Shown here one piece after another: positions 1 to 14,354 of a DNA stretch of 15,049 nucleotides (the first letter of the stretch is position 1; each line of letters begins with the position of its first letter). The position numbers and the translations under genes are program-made. This stretch comes from a virus. A model generated the notes under the pieces. It did no database searches, had not been told where the DNA came from, and saw only the letters and a list, made by a program, of their open reading frames with translations. The DNA is taken from UHGV virus genome UHGV-0082254, one strand, 5' to 3'.

Positions 1-101
1 ATCGGCTCAAACATGAAGAAATGAAATGACTGAGTCAGCCGAGAAGAATTTCCCCGCTTATTCGCACCTTCCCTAACACAGCAAAACTGCTTGCAGAAGA
101 A

Positions 102-764
102 TTGACCGGATTAATTCTGGATACAATTGTCTATCCCGACACTATTACCAGCTATGTTTCAACGATAAGAACAACCACAACCGGCTTAACGAACATTGGA
201 GAACTGGCAACTAAGCACGCGGACCTGTTGGCTGGTTATGCAGATCTGTCAATGCTGCTTCAACTCGATATTGGTTGGGATGTTTACTGCCGTGCTAATG
301 AGCGAGAAGTTTCAGAACTGCCGATCTCTATTGCCATTGGTGATGTGAATATTACTAAATCGCTTGAGGACGCTGTTAACGCGCTTAATACATCAAGTTT
401 AGTCGCTGCTATGGGGGAGATTAACCAGACCCTTAACACTGGCTCAGGAAGCTCGTCAGGCTCTGGTTCAGGCGGCGGCACTGCCACTCCCCCACCAGCA
501 CTAACAGAAGAGCAAATTGAATCTCTGAAAGTAGCAACTGAACAGTTTGGGGTTGTTTTCAACCAGACAACAGCGCCCACAACTGCGTTACAACAGCAGT
601 ATGAACGAGCGAATGAAAGCGCCAACGTAGCCATAACTGCTTATAACCATGCTATCGGTACCGCGCTTGCGGAAGCATCAGCAAATAAGGTCAGCACAGC
701 CAGCGCAGTTGCCGCTTTGGTTCCTGATTCTGTTCTTGATGAATTAAACAAAGCGGCACAGTAA
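102..764 (+). CDS. hypothetical protein with two halves joined by a Gly/Ser-rich linker
   Basis: 663-nt ORF. In-frame stop at 27-29 and no ATG until codon 51, so the start is TTG at 102 with only a weak purine-rich RBS (GCAGAAGAA). Contains a GSGSSSGSGSGGG linker followed by an Ala/Thr/Gln-rich C-terminal half. No catalytic motif recognised. Confidence 0.4.
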   Translation: MTGLILDTIVYPDTITSYVSTIRTTTTGLTNIGELATKHADLLAGYADLSMLLQLDIGWDVYCRANEREVSELPISIAIGDVNITKSLEDAVNALNTSSLVAAMGEINQTLNTGSGSSSGSGSGGGTATPPPALTEEQIESLKVATEQFGVVFNQTTAPTTALQQQYERANESANVAITAYNHAIGTALAEASANKVSTASAVAALVPDSVLDELNKAAQ

Positions 765-803
765 CAAAGGACTTCATTGATAATTTTTCTTCAGGAGGAA
801 GAC

Positions 804-1226
804 ATGTCATTCTTTTCTACGTTAAAAACAGCTTTGTCTTTGAAGGAGAAACTTGCTGCTACTGGTGTTCTTGTTCTGATTTGCGCACTTGTTGGTGCTG
901 GGTTTGCATGGGAACGTCATCAGCTAAAGCAAGCTATGGAGAAAATTGGCAGTCTTGATCAGGCTGTTAAGGAACGTGATAAGTCAATAATGGATCTTAA
1001 CCAGACCATTGAGACGATGAACAAAGCAGAGCAACATTTTCACAGCCAGGAAGTGAAAAATGAATCAGAACAAGCCAAATATGCTGACAGGCAAATGGAA
1101 CGAAAAGCTGAAGTTCAGAAACAACTGGTTGCGGCGGGTAATGTTCGCCAGCGCATTCCTGCTGACACTCAGCGGTTGCTCCGGCAGTCGATCAGCGAAT
1201 TTAACGCCGACGCCGACAAAGGTTAA
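804..1226 (+). CDS. i-spanin-like (Rz-like) type II inner-membrane coiled-coil protein
   Basis: ATG at 804 preceded by strong SD CAGGAGGAAGAC (the track start at 777 is an upstream TTG). N-terminal hydrophobic segment LAATGVLVLICALVGAGFAW, then a charged, heptad-rich periplasmic region (QAMEKIGSLDQAVKERDKSIMDLNQTIETMNKAEQ...). A lipoprotein ORF overlaps its 3' end in the +1 frame. Confidence 0.5.
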   Translation: MSFFSTLKTALSLKEKLAATGVLVLICALVGAGFAWERHQLKQAMEKIGSLDQAVKERDKSIMDLNQTIETMNKAEQHFHSQEVKNESEQAKYADRQMERKAEVQKQLVAAGNVRQRIPADTQRLLRQSISEFNADADKG

Positions 1227-1392
1227 CCACCCTGCCCCCAAAAGTGCATTTATGTGCAGGATGCCAGAGTTTAGCAGTGAATATTTTGATGATCTGCCAG
1301 CCTATATCCTTGATACAGAAACGATGCTGATGGGGATTAACAGGAAGAATCGCAACGTTAATGATTACAACCGCGCTATCAGCGGTAACTAA
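1141..1392 (+). CDS. o-spanin-like (Rz1-like) outer-membrane lipoprotein, overlapped architecture
   Basis: +1-frame ORF overlapping the 3' end of the 804..1226 gene and extending 166 nt beyond it. Signal peptide with lipobox (RR)VMFASAFLLTLSG|C; mature part is short and Pro-rich (TPTPT, HPAP) with one further Cys. Start is ambiguous: ATG 1141, TTG 1129 (gives MRRVMFASAFLLTLSGC) or the upstream ATGs at 1060/1081. Confidence 0.5.
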   Translation: MFASAFLLTLSGCSGSRSANLTPTPTKVNHPAPKSAFMCRMPEFSSEYFDDLPAYILDTETMLMGINRKNRNVNDYNRAISGN

Positions 1393-1403
1393 AAGGGATT
1401 TTT

Positions 1404-1796
1404 ATGTCTGATAAAGTAACAGTAAAGCAAACTATCAACAAAGCGACTTCAATCTACAAAATTGAGCACATCACTGTTGGCAAGCCAGGATCTGAACAAT
1501 ACCGTCATGCTTTCGAGCTTGCCGATCAGCTTGGTTTAAAACACCCGGATTGCATCGAGCATGTATTTCCGACCTATGCTGATGAGCAATGTACTCATGT
1601 TCTTACCGAAGAGGATTTTTTCAGCACTGAAGAACGAGAAGGCGTTGATCGCTGCATTGGTGTGATTTGTTCTTCGGTAAGTGATGAGTTATTCCCTAAT
1701 GTGCCTGAATATGGTGGTATTGGATACCAATTCCTGTACGAAGGCGATGAGCTTAAATGTTATGAACATGGTCTTCTTATCGAAAGCGTAGAATAA
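1404..1796 (+). CDS. hypothetical acidic Cys/His-containing protein
   Basis: 130-aa ORF with ATG start and SD AAAGGGA 6 nt upstream. Acidic, with spaced Cys/His (HPDCIEH, EQCTH, DRCIGVICSS, KCYEH) that could bind metal. Followed by a hairpin terminator. Confidence 0.6.
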   Translation: MSDKVTVKQTINKATSIYKIEHITVGKPGSEQYRHAFELADQLGLKHPDCIEHVFPTYADEQCTHVLTEEDFFSTEEREGVDRCIGVICSSVSDELFPNVPEYGGIGYQFLYEGDELKCYEHGLLIESVE

Positions 1797-1809
1797 TACC
1801 CTTCCTTCC

Positions 1810-1836
1810 AACCGGCTATGTTGGCCGGTTTATTCA
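1810..1836 (+). terminator. rho-independent terminator candidate
   Basis: AACCGGC-tatgttg-GCCGGTT stem followed by T-rich TTATTCAACTT, immediately after the 1404..1796 stop. Confidence 0.5.
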
Positions 1837-1838
1837 AC

Positions 1839-1847
1839 TTATCCACA
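1839..1847 (+). promoter_or_regulatory. DnaA box (TTATCCACA) at the plasmid origin
   Basis: Perfect 9-mer TTATCCACA directly upstream of the GATC cluster and iterons, as expected for a P1-type oriR. Confidence 0.7.
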
Positions 1848-1852
1848 GCATA

Positions 1853-1909
1853 GATCCAATAAACAGATCCCAAAGAGAACCTAGGAAGATCCAAAGAAGA
1901 TCCCGGATC
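1853..1909. repeat. cluster of five GATC (Dam) sites in AGATCC-type repeats
   Basis: GATC at 1853, 1866, 1888, 1899 and 1906, four of them within AGATCC(A/C) repeats; lies between the DnaA box and the iterons. Confidence 0.7.
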
Positions 1910-1950
1910 GCTGTAAGCCGCGCCGTTCATGGCCTGAAACGGGATCAACA

Positions 1951-2056
1951 TTGACTATACGCGATTTTATGTTGACTGTGTGCGATTTTATGTTGACTGC
2001 ACGCGATTTATTGTTGACTATACGCGACAGAAACGTTGACTGTACGCGATTTTAGA
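1951..2056 (+). repeat. five direct iterons (incC-like) of the RepA origin
   Basis: TTGACT(A/G)T(A/G)(C/T)GCGATTT(T)A(T/G) repeated at 1951, 1972, 1993, 2014 and 2036 with 21-22 bp periodicity, immediately upstream of repA. Confidence 0.85.
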
Positions 2057-2130
2057 GCCTGAATATTCACAGCTGTTGATAACAGTCATCTAAATTAACG
2101 CCAGGCCGCGCCACACATGGAGAAACCACG

Positions 2131-3015
2131 ATGCCGGAAGAAAGTAAAGGCTTCCTTAGCGTTGAAGAAGTTGCAGGAAATACAGGAGAAATCCACAGCC
2201 TGAAGCCCAATAACAACAGCACTATACAACCTATCGCTTTGTTGCGCTTAGGTGTGTTTGTGCCAACCTTAAAATCTACCAATGTGGCACTACGTCGCGG
2301 ATCGTCAGTTACTACAAACACAACGAACGCAACCGAAGAACTATCAAGCCTTAAAATTGTTGAGCAGGAAGGCTATGAGGGAATTGAAATTCATGGCCCA
2401 CGCCTGGATATGGATACTGATTTTAAGGTGTGGGTGGGCATAACCTCCGCGTTGTTTGACTACGCACCTGATGATGACGGCATAATCACCCTGCCATTCT
2501 CCGAGTTTGCCGATCGATGCGGCTATCCACGTAAGCGCCTTTCAAAGGCGTTCCGTAAAAGTATTGATGACTCTCTGACACGCATTCAGCAGACAGTTGT
2601 CAAATTCCGCTTCCCGGCGGCAAAAGGTCATCTCAATAACATTAACGTCAACTTGTTGGCATATAGCAGCCTGAATACCGAGCTTGATGTTATCGAGATC
2701 CAGCCGCAGAAACAGCTATCTGAACTTTACTATGTTGACTATAAGCGAATCCTGAAGCTGAAGATGCTGGATAAGCTCGGGCGCAAAGAGACGGCCAAGG
2801 TACTGTATACATTCTTTGAGGCTCTACCCGCCAACCCGGCACCTGTCAGCATTGAGCGCCTTAGAGCAAGGCTTAATCTCAAATCATCCGTTAGCGTGCA
2901 AAATAGCGTTATCAGAAAAGCCATGAAAGATTTGGAAGCTATTGAATATCTTAAATTTTCAGAGATAAAAAACGGCAGGAAAATCGGCTTCCAGATCCAT
3001 AAGCGCAATCCATAA
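2131..3015 (+). CDS. repA: iteron-binding plasmid replication initiator RepA (P1 RepA family)
   Basis: 294-aa ORF with SD GGAGAAA, flanked by iteron arrays on both sides. Protein blocks (PIALLRLGVFVP, GPRLDMDTDFKVWVG) resemble P1 RepA as I recall it. Confidence 0.85.
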   Translation: MPEESKGFLSVEEVAGNTGEIHSLKPNNNSTIQPIALLRLGVFVPTLKSTNVALRRGSSVTTNTTNATEELSSLKIVEQEGYEGIEIHGPRLDMDTDFKVWVGITSALFDYAPDDDGIITLPFSEFADRCGYPRKRLSKAFRKSIDDSLTRIQQTVVKFRFPAAKGHLNNINVNLLAYSSLNTELDVIEIQPQKQLSELYYVDYKRILKLKMLDKLGRKETAKVLYTFFEALPANPAPVSIERLRARLNLKSSVSVQNSVIRKAMKDLEAIEYLKFSEIKNGRKIGFQIHKRNP

Positions 3016-3017
3016 TA

Positions 3018-3272
3018 TTGACTATATGCGATAGCGAGAAGTTGACTATAGGCGACATTCGTTGACGCTGGTGGATTTTTGCTGGCGTCAATATTCTGCA
3101 AGTCGCTATTGAGATGGCTTTTAGGGTCATTTCATCGCGTATAGTCAACGTTTCTCCCGACAATATCTTACATAGTCGATCTTTGGTGGAGTTAAATCGA
3201 CTACAGTCAACTTTTGACTGTAGTCACATCGCGCATAGTCAACTATTCACATTAACTTTCGCGCATAGTCAA
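3018..3272. repeat. downstream iteron array (incA-like copy-control locus), about nine sites in both orientations
   Basis: Direct-orientation TTGACTRT.. at 3018, 3042, 3062 (degenerate) and 3214; inverted-orientation ..RTAGTCAA ending at 3148, 3180 (partial), 3210, 3242 and 3272. Confidence 0.8.
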
Positions 3273-3307
3273 CATTTGCGCGGTTCTCATCAAGCAGTGG
3301 TATTGAT

Positions 3308-4117
3308 ATGCAAGAAGAGAAACAACACTACCTCTACGTTCTGGTGCCGGAGAACGGAGATACTTTTAAAATCGGCATTTCATGTGGTCCATTGGCACGG
3401 TTTAAAGGGCTACAAGTGAGTCCCGATTTTGCGCTTTCACGGGTCTATCGTGGTACGCGTTTGGCAATAGTTAATCTTGAGCGGGCTTTACACGCAACCT
3501 TTTTCCCCTGGAATGCGCCGTGGGAGAAAAGCGCTGGTGGCGGGCATACTGAATGGTTTACACGAGAGTGTCTTGATAAGGTTTTGGCTCATATCGAATA
3601 TCTAAATGATATGTGGGGAGGGATTCTCGAGCGCATTAAGTCGAATGATTTACTTCAGCGTCCAGTAGATGCTGCCCGCTCTTTCGAAAAAGAGCTGGAT
3701 GTTACTTCTATCGTGACTTTCAAAGATGACGCAGGAATGAGGGACGTGGCTTATGTCTCCATATCTGGCTATGAACCGGACGCGATCCGCGCTCAATGTG
3801 AATTGCTGAAAGCAATGTTTATGCTTCGGACTAAATATCCCTGGGAGACAAGGCGGGTGTGCTTCCCTATGGAAGAGTTAACCGCCACCATTGATTCCCA
3901 GCTTTACCACGATAATCCAGAGAAGTTTTTTAGCCTTTTAGCCGGTAATGGGCTTAACTGTGTGTCCGGGCTGGGGCGAAGTAGAATCCAACATGCCTCG
4001 CTCTTCGGTCCCTTCTTTTACGATCGACACGGGTACTTTGAGGCTGAACTTCCGGCGCTTACGCGTGCTATAGATACTATCGATTTCGAACGATTATTCG
4101 CTGCTCTTAGCAAATAA
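3308..4117 (+). CDS. T5orf172 / GIY-YIG-like domain protein of unknown function
   Basis: 269-aa ORF with ATG start. The N-terminal ~90 aa carry the T5orf172-type pattern: HYLYVLV ... FKIGIS ... R ... LERALHATF ... GGHTEWF. The C-terminal ~170 aa are unassigned. Sits between incA and the par promoter. Confidence 0.7.
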   Translation: MQEEKQHYLYVLVPENGDTFKIGISCGPLARFKGLQVSPDFALSRVYRGTRLAIVNLERALHATFFPWNAPWEKSAGGGHTEWFTRECLDKVLAHIEYLNDMWGGILERIKSNDLLQRPVDAARSFEKELDVTSIVTFKDDAGMRDVAYVSISGYEPDAIRAQCELLKAMFMLRTKYPWETRRVCFPMEELTATIDSQLYHDNPEKFFSLLAGNGLNCVSGLGRSRIQHASLFGPFFYDRHGYFEAELPALTRAIDTIDFERLFAALSK

Positions 4118-4124
4118 CACTGAT

Positions 4125-4146
4125 GCCCCTGAACGGGGCTTTTTTG
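4125..4146 (+). terminator. rho-independent terminator
   Basis: GCCCC-tgaac-GGGGC stem followed by TTTTTTG, 8 nt after the stop at 4115-4117. Confidence 0.7.
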
Positions 4147-4285
4147 TGCCCTCCTTGTAACTCTCAATCGTGCAAAATGAACCAAACATGCAGAGAATGC
4201 TATGTACAAGCATCTGTGCATACATTATTATTTTATGCAGCATTTTTAATTAAATTCAAAAATACAGCATAAAGGATGGCTTTCG

Positions 4286-5482
4286 ATGAGTGATTCCAGC
4301 CAGCTTCACAAGGTTGCTCAAAGAGCAAACAGAATGCTCAATGTTCTGACTGAACAAGTACAGTTGCAAAAGGATGAGCTACACGCGAACGAGTTTTACC
4401 AGGTCTATGCGAAAGCGGCACTGGCAAAATTGCCTCTACTGACTCGAGCGAACGTTGACTATGCCGTGAGTGAAATGGAAGAAAAGGGTTATGTTTTCGA
4501 TAAACGCCCTGCTGGCTCTTCAATGAAATATGCGATGTCAATTCAGAACATCATTGACATATATGAACATCGCGGAGTGCCAAAATACCGGGATCGCTAC
4601 AGCGAAGCGTATGTGATTTTCATCTCCAATCTTAAAGGCGGTGTGTCAAAAACTGTATCGACGGTTTCTCTGGCGCATGCAATGCGTGCTCACCCTCATC
4701 TTCTGATGGAAGATTTAAGGATTCTGGTTATTGACCTTGATCCGCAATCTTCAGCAACGATGTTTTTAAGCCATAAACACTCTATTGGTATCGTAAACGC
4801 AACATCTGCACAGGCTATGTTGCAGAATGTAAGCCGTGAAGAGCTGTTAGAGGAGTTTATTGTTCCTTCTGTTGTACCTGGGGTTGACGTTATGCCTGCG
4901 TCGATTGACGATGCCTTTATTGCATCCGATTGGAGAGAGCTGTGCAATGAGCATCTACCGGGTCAGAACATCCATGCTGTCCTGAAAGAAAATGTGATTG
5001 ATAAGCTGAAGAGCGATTATGACTTTATCCTCGTTGATAGTGGTCCTCACCTTGACGCCTTCCTGAAAAATGCTTTGGCCTCGGCCAATATACTGTTTAC
5101 ACCTTTGCCGCCTGCAACGGTTGATTTCCACTCATCGCTTAAATACGTTGCCCGCCTTCCTGAGTTGGTGAAACTCATTTCGGATGAAGGCTGCGAGTGC
5201 CAGCTTGCGACTAACATTGGTTTTATGTCCAAGTTGAGTAACAAGGCAGACCATAAGTATTGCCATAGCCTGGCTAAAGAAGTGTTCGGTGGGGATATGC
5301 TTGATGTCGTCCTCCCTCGCCTTGACGGTTTTGAACGCTGCGGCGAGTCTTTTGACACTGTTATTTCAGCTAACCCGGCAACGTATGTTGGTAGTGCTGA
5401 TGCATTGAAGAACGCGCGAATTGCCGCGGAAGATTTTGCTAAAGCAGTTTTCGACCGTATTGAATTTATCAGATCTAACTGA
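4286..5482 (+). CDS. parA: partition ATPase ParA (type Ia, P1/P7 type)
   Basis: 398 aa; deviant Walker A box LKGGVSKT; long N-terminal extension typical of type Ia ParA; SD AAAGGATGG. Sequence and length match P1 ParA as I recall it. Confidence 0.9.
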   Translation: MSDSSQLHKVAQRANRMLNVLTEQVQLQKDELHANEFYQVYAKAALAKLPLLTRANVDYAVSEMEEKGYVFDKRPAGSSMKYAMSIQNIIDIYEHRGVPKYRDRYSEAYVIFISNLKGGVSKTVSTVSLAHAMRAHPHLLMEDLRILVIDLDPQSSATMFLSHKHSIGIVNATSAQAMLQNVSREELLEEFIVPSVVPGVDVMPASIDDAFIASDWRELCNEHLPGQNIHAVLKENVIDKLKSDYDFILVDSGPHLDAFLKNALASANILFTPLPPATVDFHSSLKYVARLPELVKLISDEGCECQLATNIGFMSKLSNKADHKYCHSLAKEVFGGDMLDVVLPRLDGFERCGESFDTVISANPATYVGSADALKNARIAAEDFAKAVFDRIEFIRSN

Positions 5483-5498
5483 GGAGTAAGAAACCCCC

Positions 5499-6500
5499 AT
5501 GTCAAAGAAAAACAGACCAACAATTGGGCGAACCCTTAATCCTTCAATATTAAGCGGATTTGATAGTTCTTCAGCCTCTGGCGATCGAGTCGAGCAGGTA
5601 TTCAAGTTATCAACTGGTCGCCAGGCCATATTTATTGAAGAGGTAATACCTCCGAACCAGGTAGAAAGCGATACCTTTGTTGATCAGCATAACAACGGGC
5701 GTGACCAGGCATCTCTTACGCCAAAATCATTAAAAAGTATCCGAAGCACTATTAAGCATCAGCAATTTTACCCTGCAATAGGTGTTAGACGGGCTACAGG
5801 GAAAATTGAAATTTTGGATGGTTCCCGGCGTCGAGCTTCTGCCATCTTAGAGAACGTAGGGTTGCGGGTTTTAGTCACGGACCAGGAGATCAGCGTTCAG
5901 GAAGCGCAAAATTTAGCGAAAGACGTTCAGACAGCATTGCAGCACAGCATTCGAGAAATAGGTCTGCGTTTGATGCGAATGAAAAATGATGGGATGAGTC
6001 AGAAGGATATTGCAGCCAAAGAAGGGCTGTCTCAGGCGAAGGTCACGCGTGCTCTCCAGGCAGCGAGTGCTCCGGAAGAATTAGTCGCCCTTTTCCCTGT
6101 GCAGTCGGAATTAACCTTTTCGGACTACAAAACGCTTTGTGCTGTTGGCGACGAAATGGGGAACAAGAATTTAGAGTTTGATCAGCTTATTCAAAACATA
6201 TCCCCGGAAATAAACGACATCTTATCCATTGAAGAAATGGCCGAAGATGAAGTTAAAAATAAAATCCTGCGCTTGATAACAAAGGAAGCCTCACTACTCA
6301 CGGATAAAGGTTCTAAAGATAAGTCCGTAGTTACTGAATTATGGAAATTTGAGGACAAGGATCGCTTTGCAAGGAAGCGCGTGAAAGGCCGTGCATTTTC
6401 TTATGAGTTTAATCGACTCTCAAAAGAGTTACAGGAAGAACTCGACAGGATGATTGGGCATATCCTTAGAAAGAGCCTCGATAAAAAGCCGAAGCCTTAA
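5499..6500 (+). CDS. parB: centromere-binding protein ParB (P1/P7 type)
   Basis: 333 aa, SD GAGGAG, immediately downstream of parA and followed by parS; sequence matches P1 ParB as I recall it. Confidence 0.9.
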   Translation: MSKKNRPTIGRTLNPSILSGFDSSSASGDRVEQVFKLSTGRQAIFIEEVIPPNQVESDTFVDQHNNGRDQASLTPKSLKSIRSTIKHQQFYPAIGVRRATGKIEILDGSRRRASAILENVGLRVLVTDQEISVQEAQNLAKDVQTALQHSIREIGLRLMRMKNDGMSQKDIAAKEGLSQAKVTRALQAASAPEELVALFPVQSELTFSDYKTLCAVGDEMGNKNLEFDQLIQNISPEINDILSIEEMAEDEVKNKILRLITKEASLLTDKGSKDKSVVTELWKFEDKDRFARKRVKGRAFSYEFNRLSKELQEELDRMIGHILRKSLDKKPKP

Positions 6501-6590
6501 ACTTTCGCCATTCAAATTTCACCATTAAATTACTGTTTTTAAAGTAAATCCTTCTAAAATTTCAAGGTGAAATCGCCACGATTTCACCTT
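6501..6590 (+). other. parS centromere (P1-type box A / box B arrangement around an AT-rich IHF-like core)
   Basis: Box B TCGCCA at 6504 and 6573; box A ATTTCAC at 6516 and 6581 and inverted GTGAAAT at 6567; AT-rich central segment between them. Confidence 0.8.
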
Positions 6591-6643
6591 GGATTTTACC
6601 TTTTCCCCCCTCCTCCCGAAAAAAAAAAATTTCTTGTCACGAG

Positions 6644-6671
6644 AAAGTCAACAAGTGACTTTCAATAAAAT
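6644..6671 (+). promoter_or_regulatory. candidate late-type promoter: palindrome AAAGTCA-N5-TGACTTT plus -10-like TAAAAT
   Basis: Perfect 7-bp inverted repeat at 6644-6662, followed after 3 nt by ATAAAAT, about 50 bp upstream of the first structural gene. Promoter function is inferred from position only. Confidence 0.3.
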
Positions 6672-6722
6672 CTCTTCCGAAAAGGGATTCACACAAGTGC
6701 CTTGTGTTTAAGGAAGAGTAAA

Positions 6723-8429
6723 TTGAGTAACTTACGCGAATACCAGAATCGTATTGCAGATATCGCAAAACGCTCTAAAGCTGTGCTTGGCTGGGCAAGC
6801 ACTGCGCAGTTCGGTACTGATAACCAATTCATTAAAGATGATGCCGCGCGTGCCGCATCTATCCTTGAAGCTGCACGTAAAGACCCGGTTTTTGCGGGTA
6901 TCTCTGATAATGCCACCGCTCAAATCGCTACAGCGTGGGCAAGTGCACTGGCTGACTACGCCGCAGCACATAAATCTATGCCGCGTCCGGAAATTCTGGC
7001 CTCCTGCCACCAGACGCTGGAAAACTGCCTGATTGAGTCCACCCGCAATAGCATGGATGCCACTAATAAAGCGATGCTGGAATCCGTCGCAGCAGAGATG
7101 ATGAGCGTTTCTGACGGTGTTATGCGTCTGCCTTTATTCCTCGCGATGATCCTGCCTGTTCAGTTGGGGGCAGCTACCGCTGATGCGTGTACCTTCATTC
7201 CGGTTACGCGTGACCAGTCCGACATCTATGAAGTCTTTAACGTGGCAGGTTCCTCTTTTGGTTCTTATGCTGCTGGTGATGTTCTGGACATGCAATCCGT
7301 CGGTGTGTACAGCCAGTTACGTCGCCGCTATGTGCTGGTGGCAAGCTCCGATGGCACCAGCAAAACCGCAACCTTCAAGATGGAAGACTTCGAAGGCCAG
7401 AATGTACCAATCCGAAAAGGTCGCACTAACATCTACGTTAACCGTATTAAGTCTGTTGTTGATAACGGTTCCGGCAGCCTACTTCACTCGTTTACTAATG
7501 CTGCTGGTGAGCAAATCACTGTTACCTGCTCTCTGAACTACAACATTGGTCAGATTGCCCTGTCGTTCTCCAAAGCGCCGGATAAAGGCACTGAGATCGC
7601 AATTGAGACGGAAATCAATATTGAAGCCGCTCCTGAGCTGATCCCGCTGATCAACCACGAAATGAAGAAATACACCCTGTTCCCAAGCCAGTTCGTTATC
7701 GCGGCTGAGCATACGGTACAGGCGGCGTATGAAGCACAGCGTGAATTTGGTCTGGACCTGGGTTCCCTACAGTTCCGCACCCTGAAGGAATACCTGTCTC
7801 ATGAACAGGATATGCTGCGTCTTCGCATTATGATCTGGCGTACTCTTGCGACCGACTCCTTTGACATCGCTTTGCCGGTTAACCAGTCCTTTGATGTATG
7901 GGCAACCATCATTCGTGGCAAATTCCAGACTGTATATCGCGACATTATTGAGCGCGTTAAATCTTCTGGTGCGATGGGGATGTTTGCTGGTGCTGATGCA
8001 GCATCTTTCTTCAAACAGTTGCCGAAGGATTTCTTCCAGCCAGCCGAAGACTATATCCAGACTCCGTATGTTCACTACATCGGTACCCTGTTCGGTAACG
8101 TGAAAGTGTACGAAGTACCTGCTGGTATTTGTAAGAATTTAACGACAGAGAACATTCAGTTCAGCTCGATGGATGTGCTGTGCTACGTCCGTGATGAAAA
8201 TCCGGGTAAAGCAGGCTTCGTGACTGGTGATGCTGTCCCGGCTATCCCGTTCCAGCATCCGACCACTCCGGCGCTGGTCAACCGTACCACGCTGTGGGGT
8301 TCGGCTATCAACGATATGCACCCACGCAACGGCGCTGATTACTTCACTCGTGTAACGCTGACAATGGCCAAAAAAGGCGGGCTTAACTTTATAAGCGGCG
8401 ACACGATTGATGCCGGTGACTCTGAGTAA
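6723..8429 (+). CDS. virion structural protein, probably the major head protein precursor (P1 gp23-like position)
   Basis: Frame is open from 6702, but there is no ATG in the first ~90 codons. Best start is TTG at 6723, 6 nt after SD AGGAAG (TTG at 6702 has no SD). Long ORF heading the structural operon directly after parS. Confidence 0.45.
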   Translation: MSNLREYQNRIADIAKRSKAVLGWASTAQFGTDNQFIKDDAARAASILEAARKDPVFAGISDNATAQIATAWASALADYAAAHKSMPRPEILASCHQTLENCLIESTRNSMDATNKAMLESVAAEMMSVSDGVMRLPLFLAMILPVQLGAATADACTFIPVTRDQSDIYEVFNVAGSSFGSYAAGDVLDMQSVGVYSQLRRRYVLVASSDGTSKTATFKMEDFEGQNVPIRKGRTNIYVNRIKSVVDNGSGSLLHSFTNAAGEQITVTCSLNYNIGQIALSFSKAPDKGTEIAIETEINIEAAPELIPLINHEMKKYTLFPSQFVIAAEHTVQAAYEAQREFGLDLGSLQFRTLKEYLSHEQDMLRLRIMIWRTLATDSFDIALPVNQSFDVWATIIRGKFQTVYRDIIERVKSSGAMGMFAGADAASFFKQLPKDFFQPAEDYIQTPYVHYIGTLFGNVKVYEVPAGICKNLTTENIQFSSMDVLCYVRDENPGKAGFVTGDAVPAIPFQHPTTPALVNRTTLWGSAINDMHPRNGADYFTRVTLTMAKKGGLNFISGDTIDAGDSE

Positions 8430-8489
8430 TCAGGGGAAGTTCTCCGTTTAACATAGCGCCCCCGTGCGGGGCGCATAACAGGGAAAGTT

Positions 8490-9980
8490 ATGTCTCAATA
8501 TTCAATTCAACAGTCATTAGGTAATGCATCCGGCGTCGCGGTTAGCCCGATCAATGCCGATGCGACGTTATCTACAGGTGTTGCATTAAATAGCAGCTTG
8601 TGGGCTGGTATTGGCGTATTTGCGCGTGGCAAGCCGTTTACTGTTCTTGCGGTTACTGAGTCCAATTACGAAGATGTTCTCGGCGAACCGCTGAAGCCGT
8701 CTTCCGGCTCACAGTTCGAACCAATTCGCCATGTATACGAAGCTATTCAGCAAACGTCTGGTTATGTTGTCCGTGCTGTTCCGGATGATGCGAAGTTCCC
8801 GGTTATTATGTTCGATGAATCAGGCGAACCGGCTTACAGTGCGTTGCCATACGGTTCTGAAATTGAACTTGATAGCGGCGAAGCCTTTGCTATCTACGTT
8901 GATGATGGTGATCCGTGTATTTCACCTACCCGTGAGTTAACCATTGAAACGGCAACAGCGGACAGCGCAGGTAATGAACGCTTCCTCCTGAAACTGACCC
9001 AGACGACTTCGCTCGGCGTGGTAACGACCCTGGAGACACACACTGTGTCTTTGGCGGAAGAAGCGAAAGATGACATGGGCCGCTTGTGTTATCTGCCTAC
9101 GGCTCTGGAAGCCCGTTCTAAATATCTGCGCGCGGTTGTTAATGAAGAGCTGATTTCGACCGCGAAAGTAACAAATAAAAAATCACTGGCGTTCACTGGC
9201 GGTACCAACGGCGATCAGTCGAAAATCTCCACCGAAGCCTACCTGCGTGCGGTTAAGGTGCTGAACAATGCGCCGTACATGTACACCGCTGTTCTCGGCC
9301 TGGGTTGCTATGACAATGCGGCGATCACCGCGTTAGGTAATATCTGTTCTGATCGCCTGATTGATGGCTTCTTTGATGTCAAACCGACATTGACGTACAC
9401 GGAAGCGCTCTCTGCTGTTGAAGATACCGGTTTACTTGGTACCGATTATGTAAGCTGTGCTGTCTATCACTTCCCGTTCTCCTGCAAAGACAAATGGACC
9501 CAATCCCGTGTGGTCTTCGGTCTGTCTGGCGCGGCGTATGCGGCGAAAGCTCGTGGCGTCAAGAAAAACTCTGATGTCGGCGGTTGGCATTACTCACCGG
9601 CTGGTGAAGAACGTGCCGTCATTGCTCGTGCGTCAATTCAACCGCTGTATCCGGAAGATACCCCGGACGAAGAAGCAATGGTTAAGGGCCGCCTCAATAA
9701 AGTATCTGTTGGCACCTCTGGCCAGATGATCATCGACGATGCTTTAACTTGCTGCACGCAGGATAACTATCTGCACTTCCAGCACGTCCCATCCCTGATG
9801 AATGCAATCAGCCGTTTCTTTGTCCAGTTAGCCCGCCAGATGAAGCATAGCCCTGACGGTACAGAACCGTATGTGCTGAAAGTTACGCAGGCGGAATTCG
9901 ATAAATGGGAAGTAGTCTGGGCCTGCTGCCCGACTGGCGTAGCCCGTCGTATCCAGGGCGTACCGCTGCTTATTAAGTAA
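8490..9980 (+). CDS. contractile tail sheath protein
   Basis: 496 aa, SD AGGGAAAG. C-terminal blocks (GGWHYSP..., VSVGTSGQMIIDDALTC) resemble the conserved C-terminal region of Myoviridae sheath proteins; located upstream of tube-like genes. Confidence 0.55.
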   Translation: MSQYSIQQSLGNASGVAVSPINADATLSTGVALNSSLWAGIGVFARGKPFTVLAVTESNYEDVLGEPLKPSSGSQFEPIRHVYEAIQQTSGYVVRAVPDDAKFPVIMFDESGEPAYSALPYGSEIELDSGEAFAIYVDDGDPCISPTRELTIETATADSAGNERFLLKLTQTTSLGVVTTLETHTVSLAEEAKDDMGRLCYLPTALEARSKYLRAVVNEELISTAKVTNKKSLAFTGGTNGDQSKISTEAYLRAVKVLNNAPYMYTAVLGLGCYDNAAITALGNICSDRLIDGFFDVKPTLTYTEALSAVEDTGLLGTDYVSCAVYHFPFSCKDKWTQSRVVFGLSGAAYAAKARGVKKNSDVGGWHYSPAGEERAVIARASIQPLYPEDTPDEEAMVKGRLNKVSVGTSGQMIIDDALTCCTQDNYLHFQHVPSLMNAISRFFVQLARQMKHSPDGTEPYVLKVTQAEFDKWEVVWACCPTGVARRIQGVPLLIK

Positions 9981-9989
9981 GGGAATACA

Positions 9990-10805
9990 ATGAGCAAAAA
10001 CTTTTTTCAATCCGGGGCATTTTTGGGGAATGGACTGTCCCGTTTCGCTTTGAACTCTGATCCTGTGCAGCTGATGGAGTCTGCCCGAGCAAGCGCCGAA
10101 CCGCCAACAGATCCGGTTATTAATAATAATCCGGAACCGGCGGCACAGACTAACGATAACGTTCCATCTGCCCCGGCTCCTGAGCAAATCCTGGAAGGGA
10201 AAGACGGTAAAGAATGGACCGTCGAACAGGCGCACCAGATGATTCTGGAAGCTGCAAATCGAAGTGCTATGCAGAATGCGTTGAGTGATGCGGCCGACGC
10301 CGTTTTCGCCTGGGCTGATAGCGGTGATCTGACTTTCGACTCCCTTGATGGTTTCGTTCAGGCTATCGCTGGTATCTCTGATGACGACGACTCCGAAGTT
10401 ACAGAAGAACAGGACGATGCCTATAACGAAGCATGGGCAAATGTTGCTGACTTCCTCGCAGCATGCGGTGTAGATGATGACCTGATCGAAGCACTGGCTG
10501 ACGATGAAGACGACGACGCAGCCGCTGATGTTGGTGCCTCTATCGCTGGTTTAGATAGCGACGACCGTGACGAACTGGAAGCGGCGTTTGTTGTTGCTGG
10601 CACTTCTGATGAAATGCTGACTGAAGCATTTAAGAAGGTTGTTCGTAACGGTGAGATCAAACTCATCCGTAAACGCCTGCGTAAAAAACGTCTGACTGCG
10701 GCTCAAAAATCGGCGCTGAAAAAAGCGCGTCGTAAAGCCCAGACCGGCGCGGCAAAACTGGCCCGCAAAAAGTCAATGAAACTGCGCCGTAAGCGCCTCG
10801 GCTAA
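9990..10805 (+). CDS. hypothetical virion-associated protein with acidic core and highly basic C-terminal tail
   Basis: 271 aa, SD AAGGGAA. Asp/Glu-rich centre (ISDDDDSEVTEEQDD, ADDEDDDAAAD) and a Lys/Arg-rich last ~45 aa (IRKRLRKKRL...KLRRKRLG). Confidence 0.7.
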   Translation: MSKNFFQSGAFLGNGLSRFALNSDPVQLMESARASAEPPTDPVINNNPEPAAQTNDNVPSAPAPEQILEGKDGKEWTVEQAHQMILEAANRSAMQNALSDAADAVFAWADSGDLTFDSLDGFVQAIAGISDDDDSEVTEEQDDAYNEAWANVADFLAACGVDDDLIEALADDEDDDAAADVGASIAGLDSDDRDELEAAFVVAGTSDEMLTEAFKKVVRNGEIKLIRKRLRKKRLTAAQKSALKKARRKAQTGAAKLARKKSMKLRRKRLG

Positions 10806-12549: not shown

Positions 12550-13395
12550 TCACCCTCTGAATCCCGCCGGTATACCCCATTGTTCGTTATCTTTATTTTT
12601 GGCTAAAACCGCATTAAGAGCTTCGTTTACCGTCATGCAATGCGGTAGGTTATCGAAGTTTGATATCCCGCCAATATCAGGCGAACGCTTGTTCTTCAGG
12701 TAAGCATATTTCCGCGCAGCCGCCTCTACTTTCTGCTTGAACTCATGTTTTTGAGCGCGTTTTTGGGATAACCGCAGATTGTCAGCCTTTGCTTTTGCCT
12801 CAGCGATCCATGAAGTCAATTTTTTGAGTCTGGACGTTCCGGCACCGCCGGAAACTGATCTTTTTGTTTTTTTAACTTGTGACTTCTTATTCTTTATTGC
12901 CACGTCATCCTGACAGGGGGAGGGGGTATCATTTTGACATGGGGGTGTGGATATAAAATTAAATAAAGCCAATGACTTAGCGATAACAGCTTTAACCTTG
13001 GTTGCCGCTGAAGAGATCTTTAATTTGCTTTCAGTCAGCGCATTTTTGGCTTGTTGTGCGAAGGCCAAAAAGGATGGTGTAAACCGGTACAGGTTAGCGC
13101 GACGTTCACGGTGATCGCCGATAACAATCTCTACAGACAGGATTCCTTTGTTTACAGCTTCACGGAATGCACGAACGACGGTTGATTGGCTATAACCAGT
13201 TTCTGCCGCGATCAGGCGGTGAGGCTTGTGAATGAAGTATTCACTGGTTGTTGCCGCGAGATTTGCACATTGCGACAGGATATGCCCGGCGCTACGGGAT
13301 AGACCGGAGTGTGTTACAAAGCAGGCCAATTCATAGCCAGAAAAAGTAAAATCGCTCATCGTTATACAGCTCAGGAAAGTGACTTTAGCCAGCAT
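12550..13395 (-). CDS. repL: lytic replication protein RepL-like
   Basis: 281 aa, directly downstream of the KilA-N gene in the same orientation, under a C1-operator-like site: the P1 kilA-repL arrangement. No convincing SD at either the first ATG or the internal ATG at 13359. Confidence 0.6.
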   Translation of the reverse strand: MLAKVTFLSCITMSDFTFSGYELACFVTHSGLSRSAGHILSQCANLAATTSEYFIHKPHRLIAAETGYSQSTVVRAFREAVNKGILSVEIVIGDHRERRANLYRFTPSFLAFAQQAKNALTESKLKISSAATKVKAVIAKSLALFNFISTPPCQNDTPSPCQDDVAIKNKKSQVKKTKRSVSGGAGTSRLKKLTSWIAEAKAKADNLRLSQKRAQKHEFKQKVEAAARKYAYLKNKRSPDIGGISNFDNLPHCMTVNEALNAVLAKNKDNEQWGIPAGFRG

Positions 13396-13424
13396 TACAA
13401 TGCTGGTGGTTCTTACTACGTCTG

Positions 13425-14225
13425 TTAGCGCGTTGCCGCGACAGGTACCAGCACACCAGCATCAAGCAATCGCTTCATCAGCCACTGCTGACCTTTGCCG
13501 GTTATACGAGTCGTGAAAGAAATCCTGCTTCCATTGCTTGTATCGATCACGGTTTCTTTAAGGGTGAAATACCCACGGGATATGTATTCTTGTTTGGGGA
13601 CGTTCCTGCGTTCACCGGTTGCGATCAGAATTCCGTTATCACGCAACCAGGTGAAGAGATAGTTTTGGCCCAGGCCGAGCACTTTGGCATAGTTGCCGAT
13701 TAGAACCCCGCTGGCGGTAGCAACGCGTTCGGCGAATTCGACTTTAGGTGCATCCATAAGCATTTTTTGCTCCAGCCGTTGCTTTTGCTCTGCCAGGTCG
13801 GCAGCCAAACGGAGAGCTTCAGGGAGACTCTGCGGAATAGCAGGTTGTAATCTTCCAGCTCGATAGTCGATAAATGTCTGGTTTACCTTCAGCCGAAACG
13901 CGGGAGAAATCCAACCAGCGTACTCCACTGCGAGCAATTCATGGGCAAAAGTGCCGCCGCCACGGCCTTCGAACGAAACTATGCAATTCTGCATAGTTTC
14001 TTTTTCAAGCTCTTCGATGAGCTGTTTAGCTGACAGCGTTCTTAGCCATTGAGCTGGCGCTTTATGGGCACCGAGTCCGCTCGCTCTGTGTAGAGCATTA
14101 AGGTTGTAACGGCCAGCGCGGTCGGTCGTAATTTCAACACCACAAATAACGGGAAGAGTGGTTGAAGGATCGACATTTTGATGAAGGTTTGATATATTCA
14201 TATCCGCATTGAATGTTTGTTGCAT
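13425..14225 (-). CDS. kilA: KilA-N + KilAC (ANT) two-domain protein, KilA-like
   Basis: 266 aa, SD GGAGAAAAA. N-terminal KilA-N-like region; C-terminal KilAC/antirepressor region (LPEALRLAADLAEQ ... NYAKVLGLGQNYLFTWLRDNGIL ... RGYFTLKE ... TGKGQQWL). Confidence 0.65.
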   Translation of the reverse strand: MQQTFNADMNISNLHQNVDPSTTLPVICGVEITTDRAGRYNLNALHRASGLGAHKAPAQWLRTLSAKQLIEELEKETMQNCIVSFEGRGGGTFAHELLAVEYAGWISPAFRLKVNQTFIDYRAGRLQPAIPQSLPEALRLAADLAEQKQRLEQKMLMDAPKVEFAERVATASGVLIGNYAKVLGLGQNYLFTWLRDNGILIATGERRNVPKQEYISRGYFTLKETVIDTSNGSRISFTTRITGKGQQWLMKRLLDAGVLVPVAATR

Positions 14226-14311: not shown

Positions 14312-14354
14312 TTTTTCTAACTCGATCCAGATCGGGTTGGTCGATCTGCTCAGA

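Follow-up and report, generated by a model that had tools for sequence, protein, structure and literature searches.

In E. coli and Salmonella, ESBL, mcr and virulence genes are spread by P1-like p0111 phage-plasmids. About half of the P1-like phage-plasmids have the p0111-type replicon instead of the classical IncY replicon of P1. We analysed a stretch of viral DNA of 15,049 nucleotides (hereafter, the window) in which a P1-like replicon at 1839-3272 lies beside a P1-type partition system. The question raised by this locus is whether the replicon is that of P1 or has a specificity of its own. The results indicated that 1839-3272 is very probably the p0111-type replicon by which a P1-like phage-plasmid is maintained as a plasmid prophage, a reading that includes a P1-like way of working, and all replicon elements named in the original prediction were located where it had placed them. 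The p0111 replicon and its P1-like reading are already known and catalogued.

Replicon type and occurrence

The region 1839-3272 was 97.8% identical over 1434/1434 bp to pO111_2 (NC_013370), which as AP010962 is the reference of the PlasmidFinder type p0111 (PMC11165635). DNA identity over this region was 99.3% to phage RCS47 and 99.9% to pS51_2, and the RepA protein was identical to that of pO111_2 at 292/294 residues and 100% identical to that of RCS47. Across the p0111 elements pO111_2, RCS47, SJ46, JL22 and phi456, DNA identity was 97.8-99.9% over the whole of 1839-3272, RepA was identical at 292-294 of 294 residues, and the flanks were arranged as in the window, with upfA on the left and a GIY-YIG ORF and P1-type parAB on the right. 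The differences were point substitutions only, besides a 30-bp unit that some relatives (L021 and L025) lack in the control array.

The p0111 replicon was found in 556 plasmid records. Of 5426 complete E. coli genomes, 415 carried it, and 410 of its 418 locations there were plasmids. On these elements, of about 95 kb, p0111 was the sole annotated plasmid replicon. This frequency, the plasmid location and the status as sole annotated replicon indicate that the replicon is in active use. A contig scan of genomes returned a single locus, identical to the query. On the P1-like backbone the p0111 replicon occupies the slot of P1 repA, a layout common to all 44 sampled P1-context loci.

Origin region

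The replicon begins at its left end with a perfect DnaA box (1839-1847, plus strand, exact match to TTATCCACA), in agreement with the DnaA box that had been predicted. Alignment to P1 oriR pairs this box with the annotated tandem DnaA boxes, and homology to a divergent relative, L045, starts exactly where the box does, at 1839. A degenerate copy (TTATTCAAC, 1830-1838) adjoins it on the left. A further DnaA-box-like site with one mismatch (TTATCAACA, 2074-2082, minus strand) lies between the iterons and repA, and L045 has a perfect DnaA box (TGTGGATAA) at the corresponding place.

Next to the left box, five GATC (Dam) sites in heptamer-like repeats are clustered at 1851-1910, starting at 1853, 1866, 1888, 1899 and 1906; a sixth lies at 1943-1946, and the mean frequency across the window is one GATC per ~225 bp. 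The original prediction had described five GATC sites in AGATCC repeats. The five clustered sites are present, but the AGATCC repeat holds for only four of them, the fifth being GGATCG. In P1 oriR, five Dam sites are annotated at the aligned position, and the cluster probably serves as the region of origin opening and SeqA sequestration. Over 1839-1924, identity was 78% to P1 and 92% to L045.

Five direct origin iterons (incC equivalent) follow at 1951-2054 on the plus strand, with starts at 1951, 1972, 1993, 2014 and 2036. Each consists of a 14-nt core (TTGACTRYRYGCGA) and a T-rich tail, and the period is 21-22 bp, which bears out the five 21-bp direct iterons claimed for this region. The pattern TTGACTRNRNGCGA, with at most one mismatch, matched 12 times in the window, where 0.23 matches were expected. 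All 12 lay within 1951-3272, and none of 200 shuffles gave as many. DnaA boxes and a cluster of GATC heptamers thus stand beside five direct iterons spaced by about two helical turns, as in a P1-type origin.

RepA and the downstream control array

The gene repA (2131-3015, plus strand) encodes an initiator of 294 aa that was assigned to the RepFIB/P1 RepA (Rep_3) family by Pfam, PHROG and BLASTP. Its product scored 27.3 bits against Pfam Rep3_C (cut-off 21.1) and 22.0 bits against Rep3_N, just below the cut-off of 22.4, and it matched PHROG 775 with an E value of 2.6e-134. A phmmer search against PDB sequences returned no meaningful match, and NCBIfam had no model for this RepA or for P1 RepA. 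Homology to P1 RepA by BLASTP and the Rep3_C match are those of an initiator of P1-type iteron-controlled theta replicons.

The promoter scan found no plus-strand sigma-70 promoter upstream of repA at a match of 9/12 or better, so autoregulation by RepA is proposed purely by analogy. The best candidate, found by hand, was TTGACT at 2036 with a 17-nt spacer and CTGAAT; it reached only 8/12, and we do not claim it as the repA promoter. Pattern matching also revealed an iteron-like site within repA (TTGACTATAAGCGA, 2735-2748, plus strand). This site was identical at 14/14 positions, at the same codon position, in L045, where the repA DNA is only ~77% identical.

Downstream of repA, the control array (incA equivalent, 3018-3272) carries iterons in both orientations. 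Two strong direct sites (3018-3036 and 3042-3060, plus strand) and four strong inverted sites (3130-3148, 3192-3210, 3224-3242 and 3254-3272, minus strand) were found, together with a degenerate direct site from 3062 on the plus strand and degenerate inverted sites at 3073-3091 and 3161-3179 on the minus strand. The description "about nine iterons, both orientations" is therefore fair, with six strong and three degenerate sites. Successive sites on the minus strand lie 31, 31, 32 and 30 bp apart; in P1 incA, the six inverted iterons have a spacing of ~31 bp. A second, incA-type iteron array thus lies downstream of repA, and it is conserved in a relative with an 85% identical RepA.

Comparison with the IncY replicon, partition and incompatibility

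The classic P1 oriR layout that had been proposed was matched, feature by feature, to the annotated oriR, incC and incA of P1. The IncY replicons of P1 and P7 have the same parts in the same order and number (oriR, incC iterons, repA, incA), and P1 shares the 21-bp spacing of the origin iterons, the ~31-bp spacing of the inverted control iterons, a homologous origin half with DnaA box and GATC cluster, and the genomic slot between upfA and parA. P1 differs in having two left DnaA boxes where the p0111 replicon has one perfect box, and nine clear control iterons in incA where the p0111 array has six clear and three degenerate ones. RepA, held in the original prediction to be clearly diverged from P1 RepA, was 42% identical to it by BLASTP (115/272, E 9e-71) and 8 aa longer. 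In the comparison of RepA and iterons with P1 and P7, neither was near-identical: RepA was 42.3% identical to P1 RepA and P7 RepA alike, and the iterons were unrelated. The P1 iteron, the 19-mer GATGTGTGCTGGAGGGAAA, does not resemble the p0111 core; with up to 3 mismatches allowed, it had 0 matches in the window, and with up to 1 allowed, the window-type pattern had 0 matches in the P1 locus. The iteron core is thus unlike that of P1, as had been suspected, and the origin iteron cores were identical to the aligned P1 positions at 27/70, about the level of chance. Neither the P1-type iterons nor the near-identical P1/P7 RepA that mark an IncY replicon were found.

The partition system belongs to the P1 partition species (incB) by ParA, ParB and parS. 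parA (4286-5482, plus strand; Pfam HTH_54 and AAA_31) and parB (5499-6500, plus strand; Pfam ParB family) are of P1 type, and their products, described earlier as looking P1-identical, matched those of P1 at 397/398 and 332/333 residues. The P1-type centromere parS was located at 6505-6587 on the plus strand by alignment to the annotated parS of NC_005856; every annotated ParB A and B box is that of P1, and four substitutions lie in or beside the IHF site. Given a RepA with only 42% identity and iterons that have no relation to the P1 19-mer, the replication-control determinants (incA and incC equivalents) should not cross-react with IncY replicons. From sequence, a separate incompatibility specificity is likely and would be confined to these determinants. 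By analogy with P1, partition (incB) incompatibility with P1 is still to be expected, as ParB and parS are identical.

Among the complete E. coli genomes, p0111 was present in 415, IncY in 359 and either in 772, so that 2 carried both, against 27.5 expected under independence, a ~14-fold depletion confounded by the shared par and possibly by immunity. In these 2 genomes the two types were on separate replicons, and no single record carried both. The depletion could reflect some incompatibility, and shared par, and probably immunity, account for it equally well. It is also what a diverged IncY allele would show if it still cross-reacted with P1 RepA and iterons and so belonged to the same replication incompatibility group, and the P1-like architecture and the 78% identity of the host-factor half of the origin fit such an allele too. 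We consider this very unlikely, because RepA is so distant from P1 RepA, the iteron cores agree with P1 only at about chance, each iteron type is missing from the other's locus, two genomes hold both types on separate replicons, and identical ParB and parS by themselves predict the depletion.

Boundaries of the exchanged module

The original prediction had proposed a mosaic in which the replicon specificity was swapped and the partition system retained. The sequence comparison supports reading the window as such a mosaic, with the replicon exchanged and the P1 partition kept: the flanks are 97-100% identical to P1, RepA is 42% identical and the iterons are unrelated. On the left, identity to P1 is 97-100% as far as the end of upfA (~1796), and on the right it reaches the same level from ~4190 on, through parA, parB and parS; genes 23/22 in the flanks are likewise 97-100% identical. 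The swapped module extends from ~1797 to ~4190 and comprises the origin, repA, the control array and the GIY-YIG/T5orf172 ORF. At the right junction (~4184-4194), identity to P1 rises from 39-69% to 97-100% at ~4190, just past a terminator-like hairpin with a T run (4125-4149, plus strand). A left junction between the GATC region and the iterons, placed at 1924 by blastn, was rejected; sliding identity falls from ~1797. Because 1839-1924 is homologous to its counterparts in P1 and L045 but diverged from both, the whole origin is assigned to the incoming module.

The replacement of IncY by p0111 in P1-like phage-plasmids is already published. For JL22, "repA' (p0111) and gp57 replacing repA (IncY)" was described (PMC9603915), an earlier report noted two replicases at one position, typed IncY or p0111 (PMC7969092), and ~17 type switches were inferred on a tree of Salmonella phage-plasmids (PMC11165635).

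The GIY-YIG/T5orf172 ORF (3308-4117, plus strand, 269 aa; Pfam T5orf172, 26.8 bits; PHROG 2876) lies between the control array and parA and marks the right edge of the swapped module; it is a passenger gene and is missing from P1. It was present in all 44 P1-context loci; among 50,697 phage records it was found only in the 12 that carry the replicon. The ORF matched no defence system in PADLOC and had no NCBIfam model. If its product were no passive passenger but a free-standing homing-type nuclease that cut IncY P1 near the incA-parA junction, repair from a co-resident p0111 element would co-convert the whole replicon module. Such homing would explain why p0111 always travels with the T5orf172 gene in P1-like elements, why the right junction lies just past the terminator of this gene, and why replicon-type switches are many on the phage-plasmid tree; we nevertheless rate it as highly improbable.

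A divergent relative and selection on the iterons

Besides the p0111 elements, RepA was 85% identical to that of E. coli and E. marmotae phage-plasmids of ~90-94 kb with Pmg-like morphogenesis genes (for example NZ_CP085065.1; loci L045 and L046), whose replicon is the MOB-suite rep_cluster_2164. These elements have the same DnaA box, GATC cluster, five origin iterons and intragenic repA site. Their control array has three direct and then four inverted iterons, whereas the window has 5-6 inverted ones, and the neighbourhood differs, with a PmgB-like gene on one side, tail-tube genes on the other, and neither the GIY-YIG ORF nor an adjacent parAB. The spacers and the repA leader are only ~41-48% identical to those of the window.

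IncFIB (RepFIB) plasmids and SSU5-like phage-plasmids use the same initiator family. One could suppose that the module is an ordinary IncFIB-type replicon, recently captured from a conjugative F-like plasmid and with nothing specific to phage-plasmids, as RepA is a member of RepFIB, a very large family (at least 5000 matching plasmid records), and is annotated as "RepFIB replication protein A". However, RepA was only 44-49% identical to the nearest IncFIB-like proteins and 45.7% identical to SSU5 RepA, which makes them as distant as P1 RepA, and the sole intermediate relatives found, at 85%, are another lineage of phage-plasmids, those bearing Pmg genes. p0111 has also been reported only from P1-like elements (PMC9603915), and a recent IncFIB capture is in our judgement highly unlikely.

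The iteron cores are under purifying selection. Between the window and L045, 148 of 168 positions in all iteron cores were identical (88%), against 117 of 244 in other non-coding positions (48%; Fisher p = 5e-18). The origin iteron cores were identical at 64/70 positions and the control-array cores at 84/98, with 55/134 in the array spacers. Among 34 distinct close variants, core substitutions occurred only at the central positions 7-11 and none fell in TTGACT or GCGA. A raw polymorphism test in the close family was rejected as evidence of selection (24/154 versus 78/442 variable columns, p = 0.62); one unit deletion makes up 14 of the 24 variable core columns, and what is informative there is only where in the cores the substitutions fall.

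The relative also bears on whether the repeats are RepA iterons at all. Their strict linkage to the T5orf172 ORF in P1-like elements would suit operators for another DNA-binding protein, such as the adjacent T5orf172 protein, but the 85% relative has repA and the full set of repeats (five origin, three direct, four inverted) without this ORF, and the repeats mirror the RepA sites of P1 in number, spacing and position. We therefore regard operators of this kind as extremely unlikely and treat the repeats as putative RepA iterons.

Proposed mechanism and significance

From the architecture and the homology of RepA to the initiator of the experimentally studied P1 oriR-repA-incA system, we infer how the p0111 replicon would work. 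RepA monomers would bind the five direct iterons at 1951-2054 and host DnaA the flanking DnaA boxes, and the two proteins together would open the adjacent GATC-rich repeats, whose Dam methylation state would couple initiation to the cell cycle. RepA probably also acts as a repressor of its own promoter when it occupies the origin iterons. The array at 3018-3272 would titrate RepA and handcuff the origin, so that copy number would be held near one. In the literature searched there was no experiment on the p0111 replicon and no paper on p0111 and iterons in a replicon context.

An explicit iteron map and evidence of selection on the cores appear to be absent from the open literature that we searched. 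The module boundaries at ~1797 and ~4190, the constant GIY-YIG/T5orf172 gene, the core conservation in L045 and the co-residence count are small additions to what is known, and the findings on the p0111 replicon open no new question. They place the window in the p0111 branch of the P1-like phage-plasmids and offer a clean case of modular exchange, in which the specificity half of a replicon, with the initiator, origin iterons and control iterons, was swapped as a unit and the partition system and phage genes were left in place. The iteron map and the evidence of selection on the cores would be useful for the design of p0111 mini-replicons or P1-compatible vectors.

Layout of the replicon and comparison with P1

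We compared the region 1839-3272 with P1 (NC_005856), whose oriR contains tandem DnaA boxes, five Dam sites and five incC origin iterons at 21-bp spacing. The P1-like layout proposed in the original prediction was present in full, with a DnaA box, a GATC cluster, five direct iterons, repA and downstream iterons. The left DnaA box, TTATCCACA (1839-1847), is perfect (exact match), and clustered GATC sites follow at 1853, 1866, 1888, 1899 and 1906, with a sixth GATC at 1943; the window average is about one per 225 bp. The five clustered sites were thus as predicted, while the AGATCC context proposed for all of them was found at only four, the fifth being GGATCG. Next comes a set of five direct repeats, with starts at 1951, 1972, 1993, 2014 and 2036 (period 21-22 bp), and a one-mismatch DnaA box on the minus strand (2074-2082) lies between them and repA, a 294-aa ORF at 2131-3015. 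With one mismatch allowed, TTGACTRNRNGCGA gave 12 matches in the window against 0.23 expected, a count reached in 0 of 200 shuffles, and all 12 were confined to 1951-3272.

Downstream of repA, a weight-matrix scan and sequence reading located strong sites on the plus strand at 3018 and 3042 and on the minus strand at 3130-3148, 3192-3210, 3224-3242 and 3254-3272, together with degenerate sites at 3062 (plus), 3073-3091 (minus) and 3161-3179 (minus). With six strong and three degenerate sites, the estimate of about nine iterons in both orientations was fair. In P1, the control region incA comprises nine iterons, of which the first three share the orientation of the origin and the remaining six are inverted and about 31 bp apart; the inverted sites here are spaced 31, 31, 32 and 30 bp, indicating that the layout is that of P1.

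The sequences themselves are not those of P1. RepA was identical to P1 RepA at 115 of 272 positions (42%), with P7 RepA equally distant, the P1 19-mer iteron was not found in the window even with three mismatches allowed, and the window iteron pattern was not found in the P1 locus. Alignment of RepA and iterons with P1, and of RepA with P7, therefore did not show essential identity to P1, and the iteron and RepA differ from their P1 counterparts as proposed. In contrast, ParA and ParB matched P1 at 397/398 and 332/333 residues, in line with the prediction, and every annotated ParB box of the centromere parS was identical. Separately, one record labelled as P1 (OP279344.1, 'Escherichia phage P1 isolate del res del mod') carries IncY-type repA and, despite its label, partition genes that are not P1-type (parA/parB at locus 8575-10742). 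Their lengths differ from those in NC_005856, its parA shows about 64.5% DNA identity to the P1-type parA of the window, and its par may be P7-like.

Two further sites were observed. The iteron-like TTGACTATAAGCGA within the repA coding sequence (2735-2748, plus) recurs with 14/14 identity and in the same codon position in L045 and L046, two loci with 85%-identical RepA, even though DNA identity across the genes is only about 77%. The site could function as a RepA target inside the gene; alternatively, codon constraint by itself could preserve it. At 3062-3091, 45 bp past the repA stop codon, a pair of opposed degenerate iteron halves forms a palindrome with a 10-bp stem, TTGACGCTGG...CTGGCGTCAA, of which L045 conserves the left half. 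Possible roles for the palindrome are as a terminator or as a site bound by RepA dimers.

Mosaic junctions

Blastn aligned window 73-1924 and 4184-9861 with P1 and left 1925-4183 unmatched. Sliding identity was 97-100% to the end of upfA (1796), fell to 86, 78 and 73% across 1790-1931, and, on the right, climbed from 39-69% back to 97-100% around 4190, immediately past a terminator-like hairpin (4125-4139) and just upstream of the P1-annotated par promoter region. These shifts place the incoming module at about 1797 to about 4190, so that it contains the complete origin, repA, the control iterons and an additional ORF. The DnaA-box/GATC half of the origin arrived as part of the module; its 78% identity to P1 reflects a donor replicon that was itself P1-type, and its identity to L045, a more distant relative, is 92%.

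Elsewhere, the tail-sheath gene (8490-9980, homologous to gene 22) lacks 99 nt of the P1 sequence, an in-frame loss of 33 aa, at about 9853-9861, near the C-terminus and between short GACGGTA direct repeats, giving 496 aa here and 529 aa in P1; by blastn, the stretch is absent relative to RCS47 too.

Replicon type and distribution

The region 1839-3272 was 97.8% identical over its full length to pO111_2 of E. coli O111:H- 11128 (NC_013370 = AP010962), with RepA identical at 292/294 residues. Since AP010962 serves as the 'p0111' replication-gene reference (PMC11165635), the replicon type is p0111. The 1.5-kb region was 99.3% identical to phage RCS47 (RepA 100%) and 97.5-97.9% to SJ46, JL22, phi456 and others, and matched 556 plasmid records, mostly non-mobilizable E. 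coli/Salmonella plasmids of about 95 kb. JL22 has been described with repA' (p0111) and gp57 in place of repA (IncY), and 55 P1-like elements comprised 31 IncY and 24 p0111 (PMC9603915). A Salmonella phage-plasmid survey counted 132 p0111 and 94 IncY, with about 17 type switches on the tree (PMC11165635). No description of p0111 iterons was found in the searchable literature. Replicon labels for the family differ between typing schemes: pS51_2 (NZ_CP015997.1), a 99.9%-identical p0111 element, is typed 'IncHI1B' by MOB-suite in PLSDB, and the relative with 85% RepA identity carries the label 'rep_cluster_2164'.

RepA falls within the RepFIB/P1 RepA family, a very large one with at least 5000 matching plasmid records, about 395 of them at ≥95% identity, a handful at 60-95% and the rest below 60%. 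The listed IncFIB-like matches were 44-49% identical and an SSU5-type RepA 45.7%. By this distribution, p0111 forms a tight clade of its own, to which IncFIB is no closer than P1.

Iteron conservation in divergent relatives

An IMG/VR scan gave 46 loci, in two of which (L045 and L046) RepA was only 85% identical. These derive from E. coli/E. marmotae phage-plasmids of about 90-94 kb (e.g. NZ_CP085065.1), which carry PmgB-, PmgC- and PmgG-like genes and tail-tube genes and whose replicon neighbourhood is unlike that of the window. Homology (77% in DNA) begins exactly at the DnaA box (1839), and the DnaA box, GATC cluster and five iterons at 21/21/21/22 bp are kept; the right-hand DnaA box is perfect, and the control iterons are three direct and four inverted (31/30/32 bp). 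Against the 85% relative, iteron cores were identical at 148/168 positions and other non-coding positions at 117/244 (Fisher p = 5e-18), a contrast that points to functional repeats. The weak site at 3161-3179 aligned with a strong L045 iteron, indicating a decayed copy in register. Two IMG/VR loci (L021 and L025) were about 30 bp shorter, having lost exactly one 30-bp control-array unit (the iteron at 3229-3242), which suggests copy-number variation of control iterons; two plasmid matches (H40 and H41) were likewise about 30 bp shorter. Among 34 distinct close variants, core substitutions fell only at central positions 7-11, with none in TTGACT or GCGA; this pattern and the 30-bp unit losses would fit a bipartite recognition site.

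Replication control and co-residence with IncY

On the model of P1, a homologous system characterised by experiment, RepA monomers would bind the origin iterons and DnaA the flanking boxes, and the GATC repeats would be opened when methylated and sequestered when hemimethylated. RepA on the origin iterons would be expected to repress the repA promoter, for which a scan gave no convincing candidate, and the downstream array would titrate RepA and handcuff the origin.

The unrelated iterons and the 42%-identical initiator argue for replication control independent of IncY, the classical P1/P7 type, and the two replicase families, which occupy the same position and correspond to IncY/p0111 typing, may allow co-maintenance (PMC7969092). 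Among 5426 complete E. coli genomes, p0111 repA occurred in 415, IncY repA in 359 and either in 772, so both occurred in 2, against about 27.5 expected under independence; no single record carried both. Co-residence is thus possible yet strongly depleted. P1-type parA was present in 44/44 sampled p0111 elements, and partition incompatibility, and possibly phage immunity, is enough to explain the depletion, which therefore cannot be read as replication incompatibility.

Neighbouring genes

Between the control iterons and parA lies a 269-aa ORF (3308-4117, plus) with a GIY-YIG-like T5orf172 domain. It was present in 44/44 P1-context p0111 loci, absent from P1 and the 85% relative, and found among 50,697 phage records only in the same 12 that carry the replicon; the pO111_2 annotation divides it into two smaller ORFs. 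It had no PADLOC match. On the minus strand, 12550-14225 holds two ORFs sized like P1 repL (281 aa) and kilA (266 aa), the former with a weak 'replication initiation O-like' PHROG match and the latter KilAC/antirepressor-like. Three GATC sites lie within 23 bp (14324-14346) just upstream of the kilA-like ORF. These features suggest that the window holds a lytic replicon as well.

Taken together, the observation in 1839-3272 is confirmed and its interpretation supported: P1 flanks enclose a non-P1 module, as expected of a mosaic with the replicon exchanged and partition retained, which the literature also states. As a named replicon type, the feature was known before. What value remains is descriptive and lies in the iteron map, the junctions, a related replicon from a second lineage of phage-plasmids, the link with a T5orf172 gene and the finding that p0111 and IncY rarely share a host.
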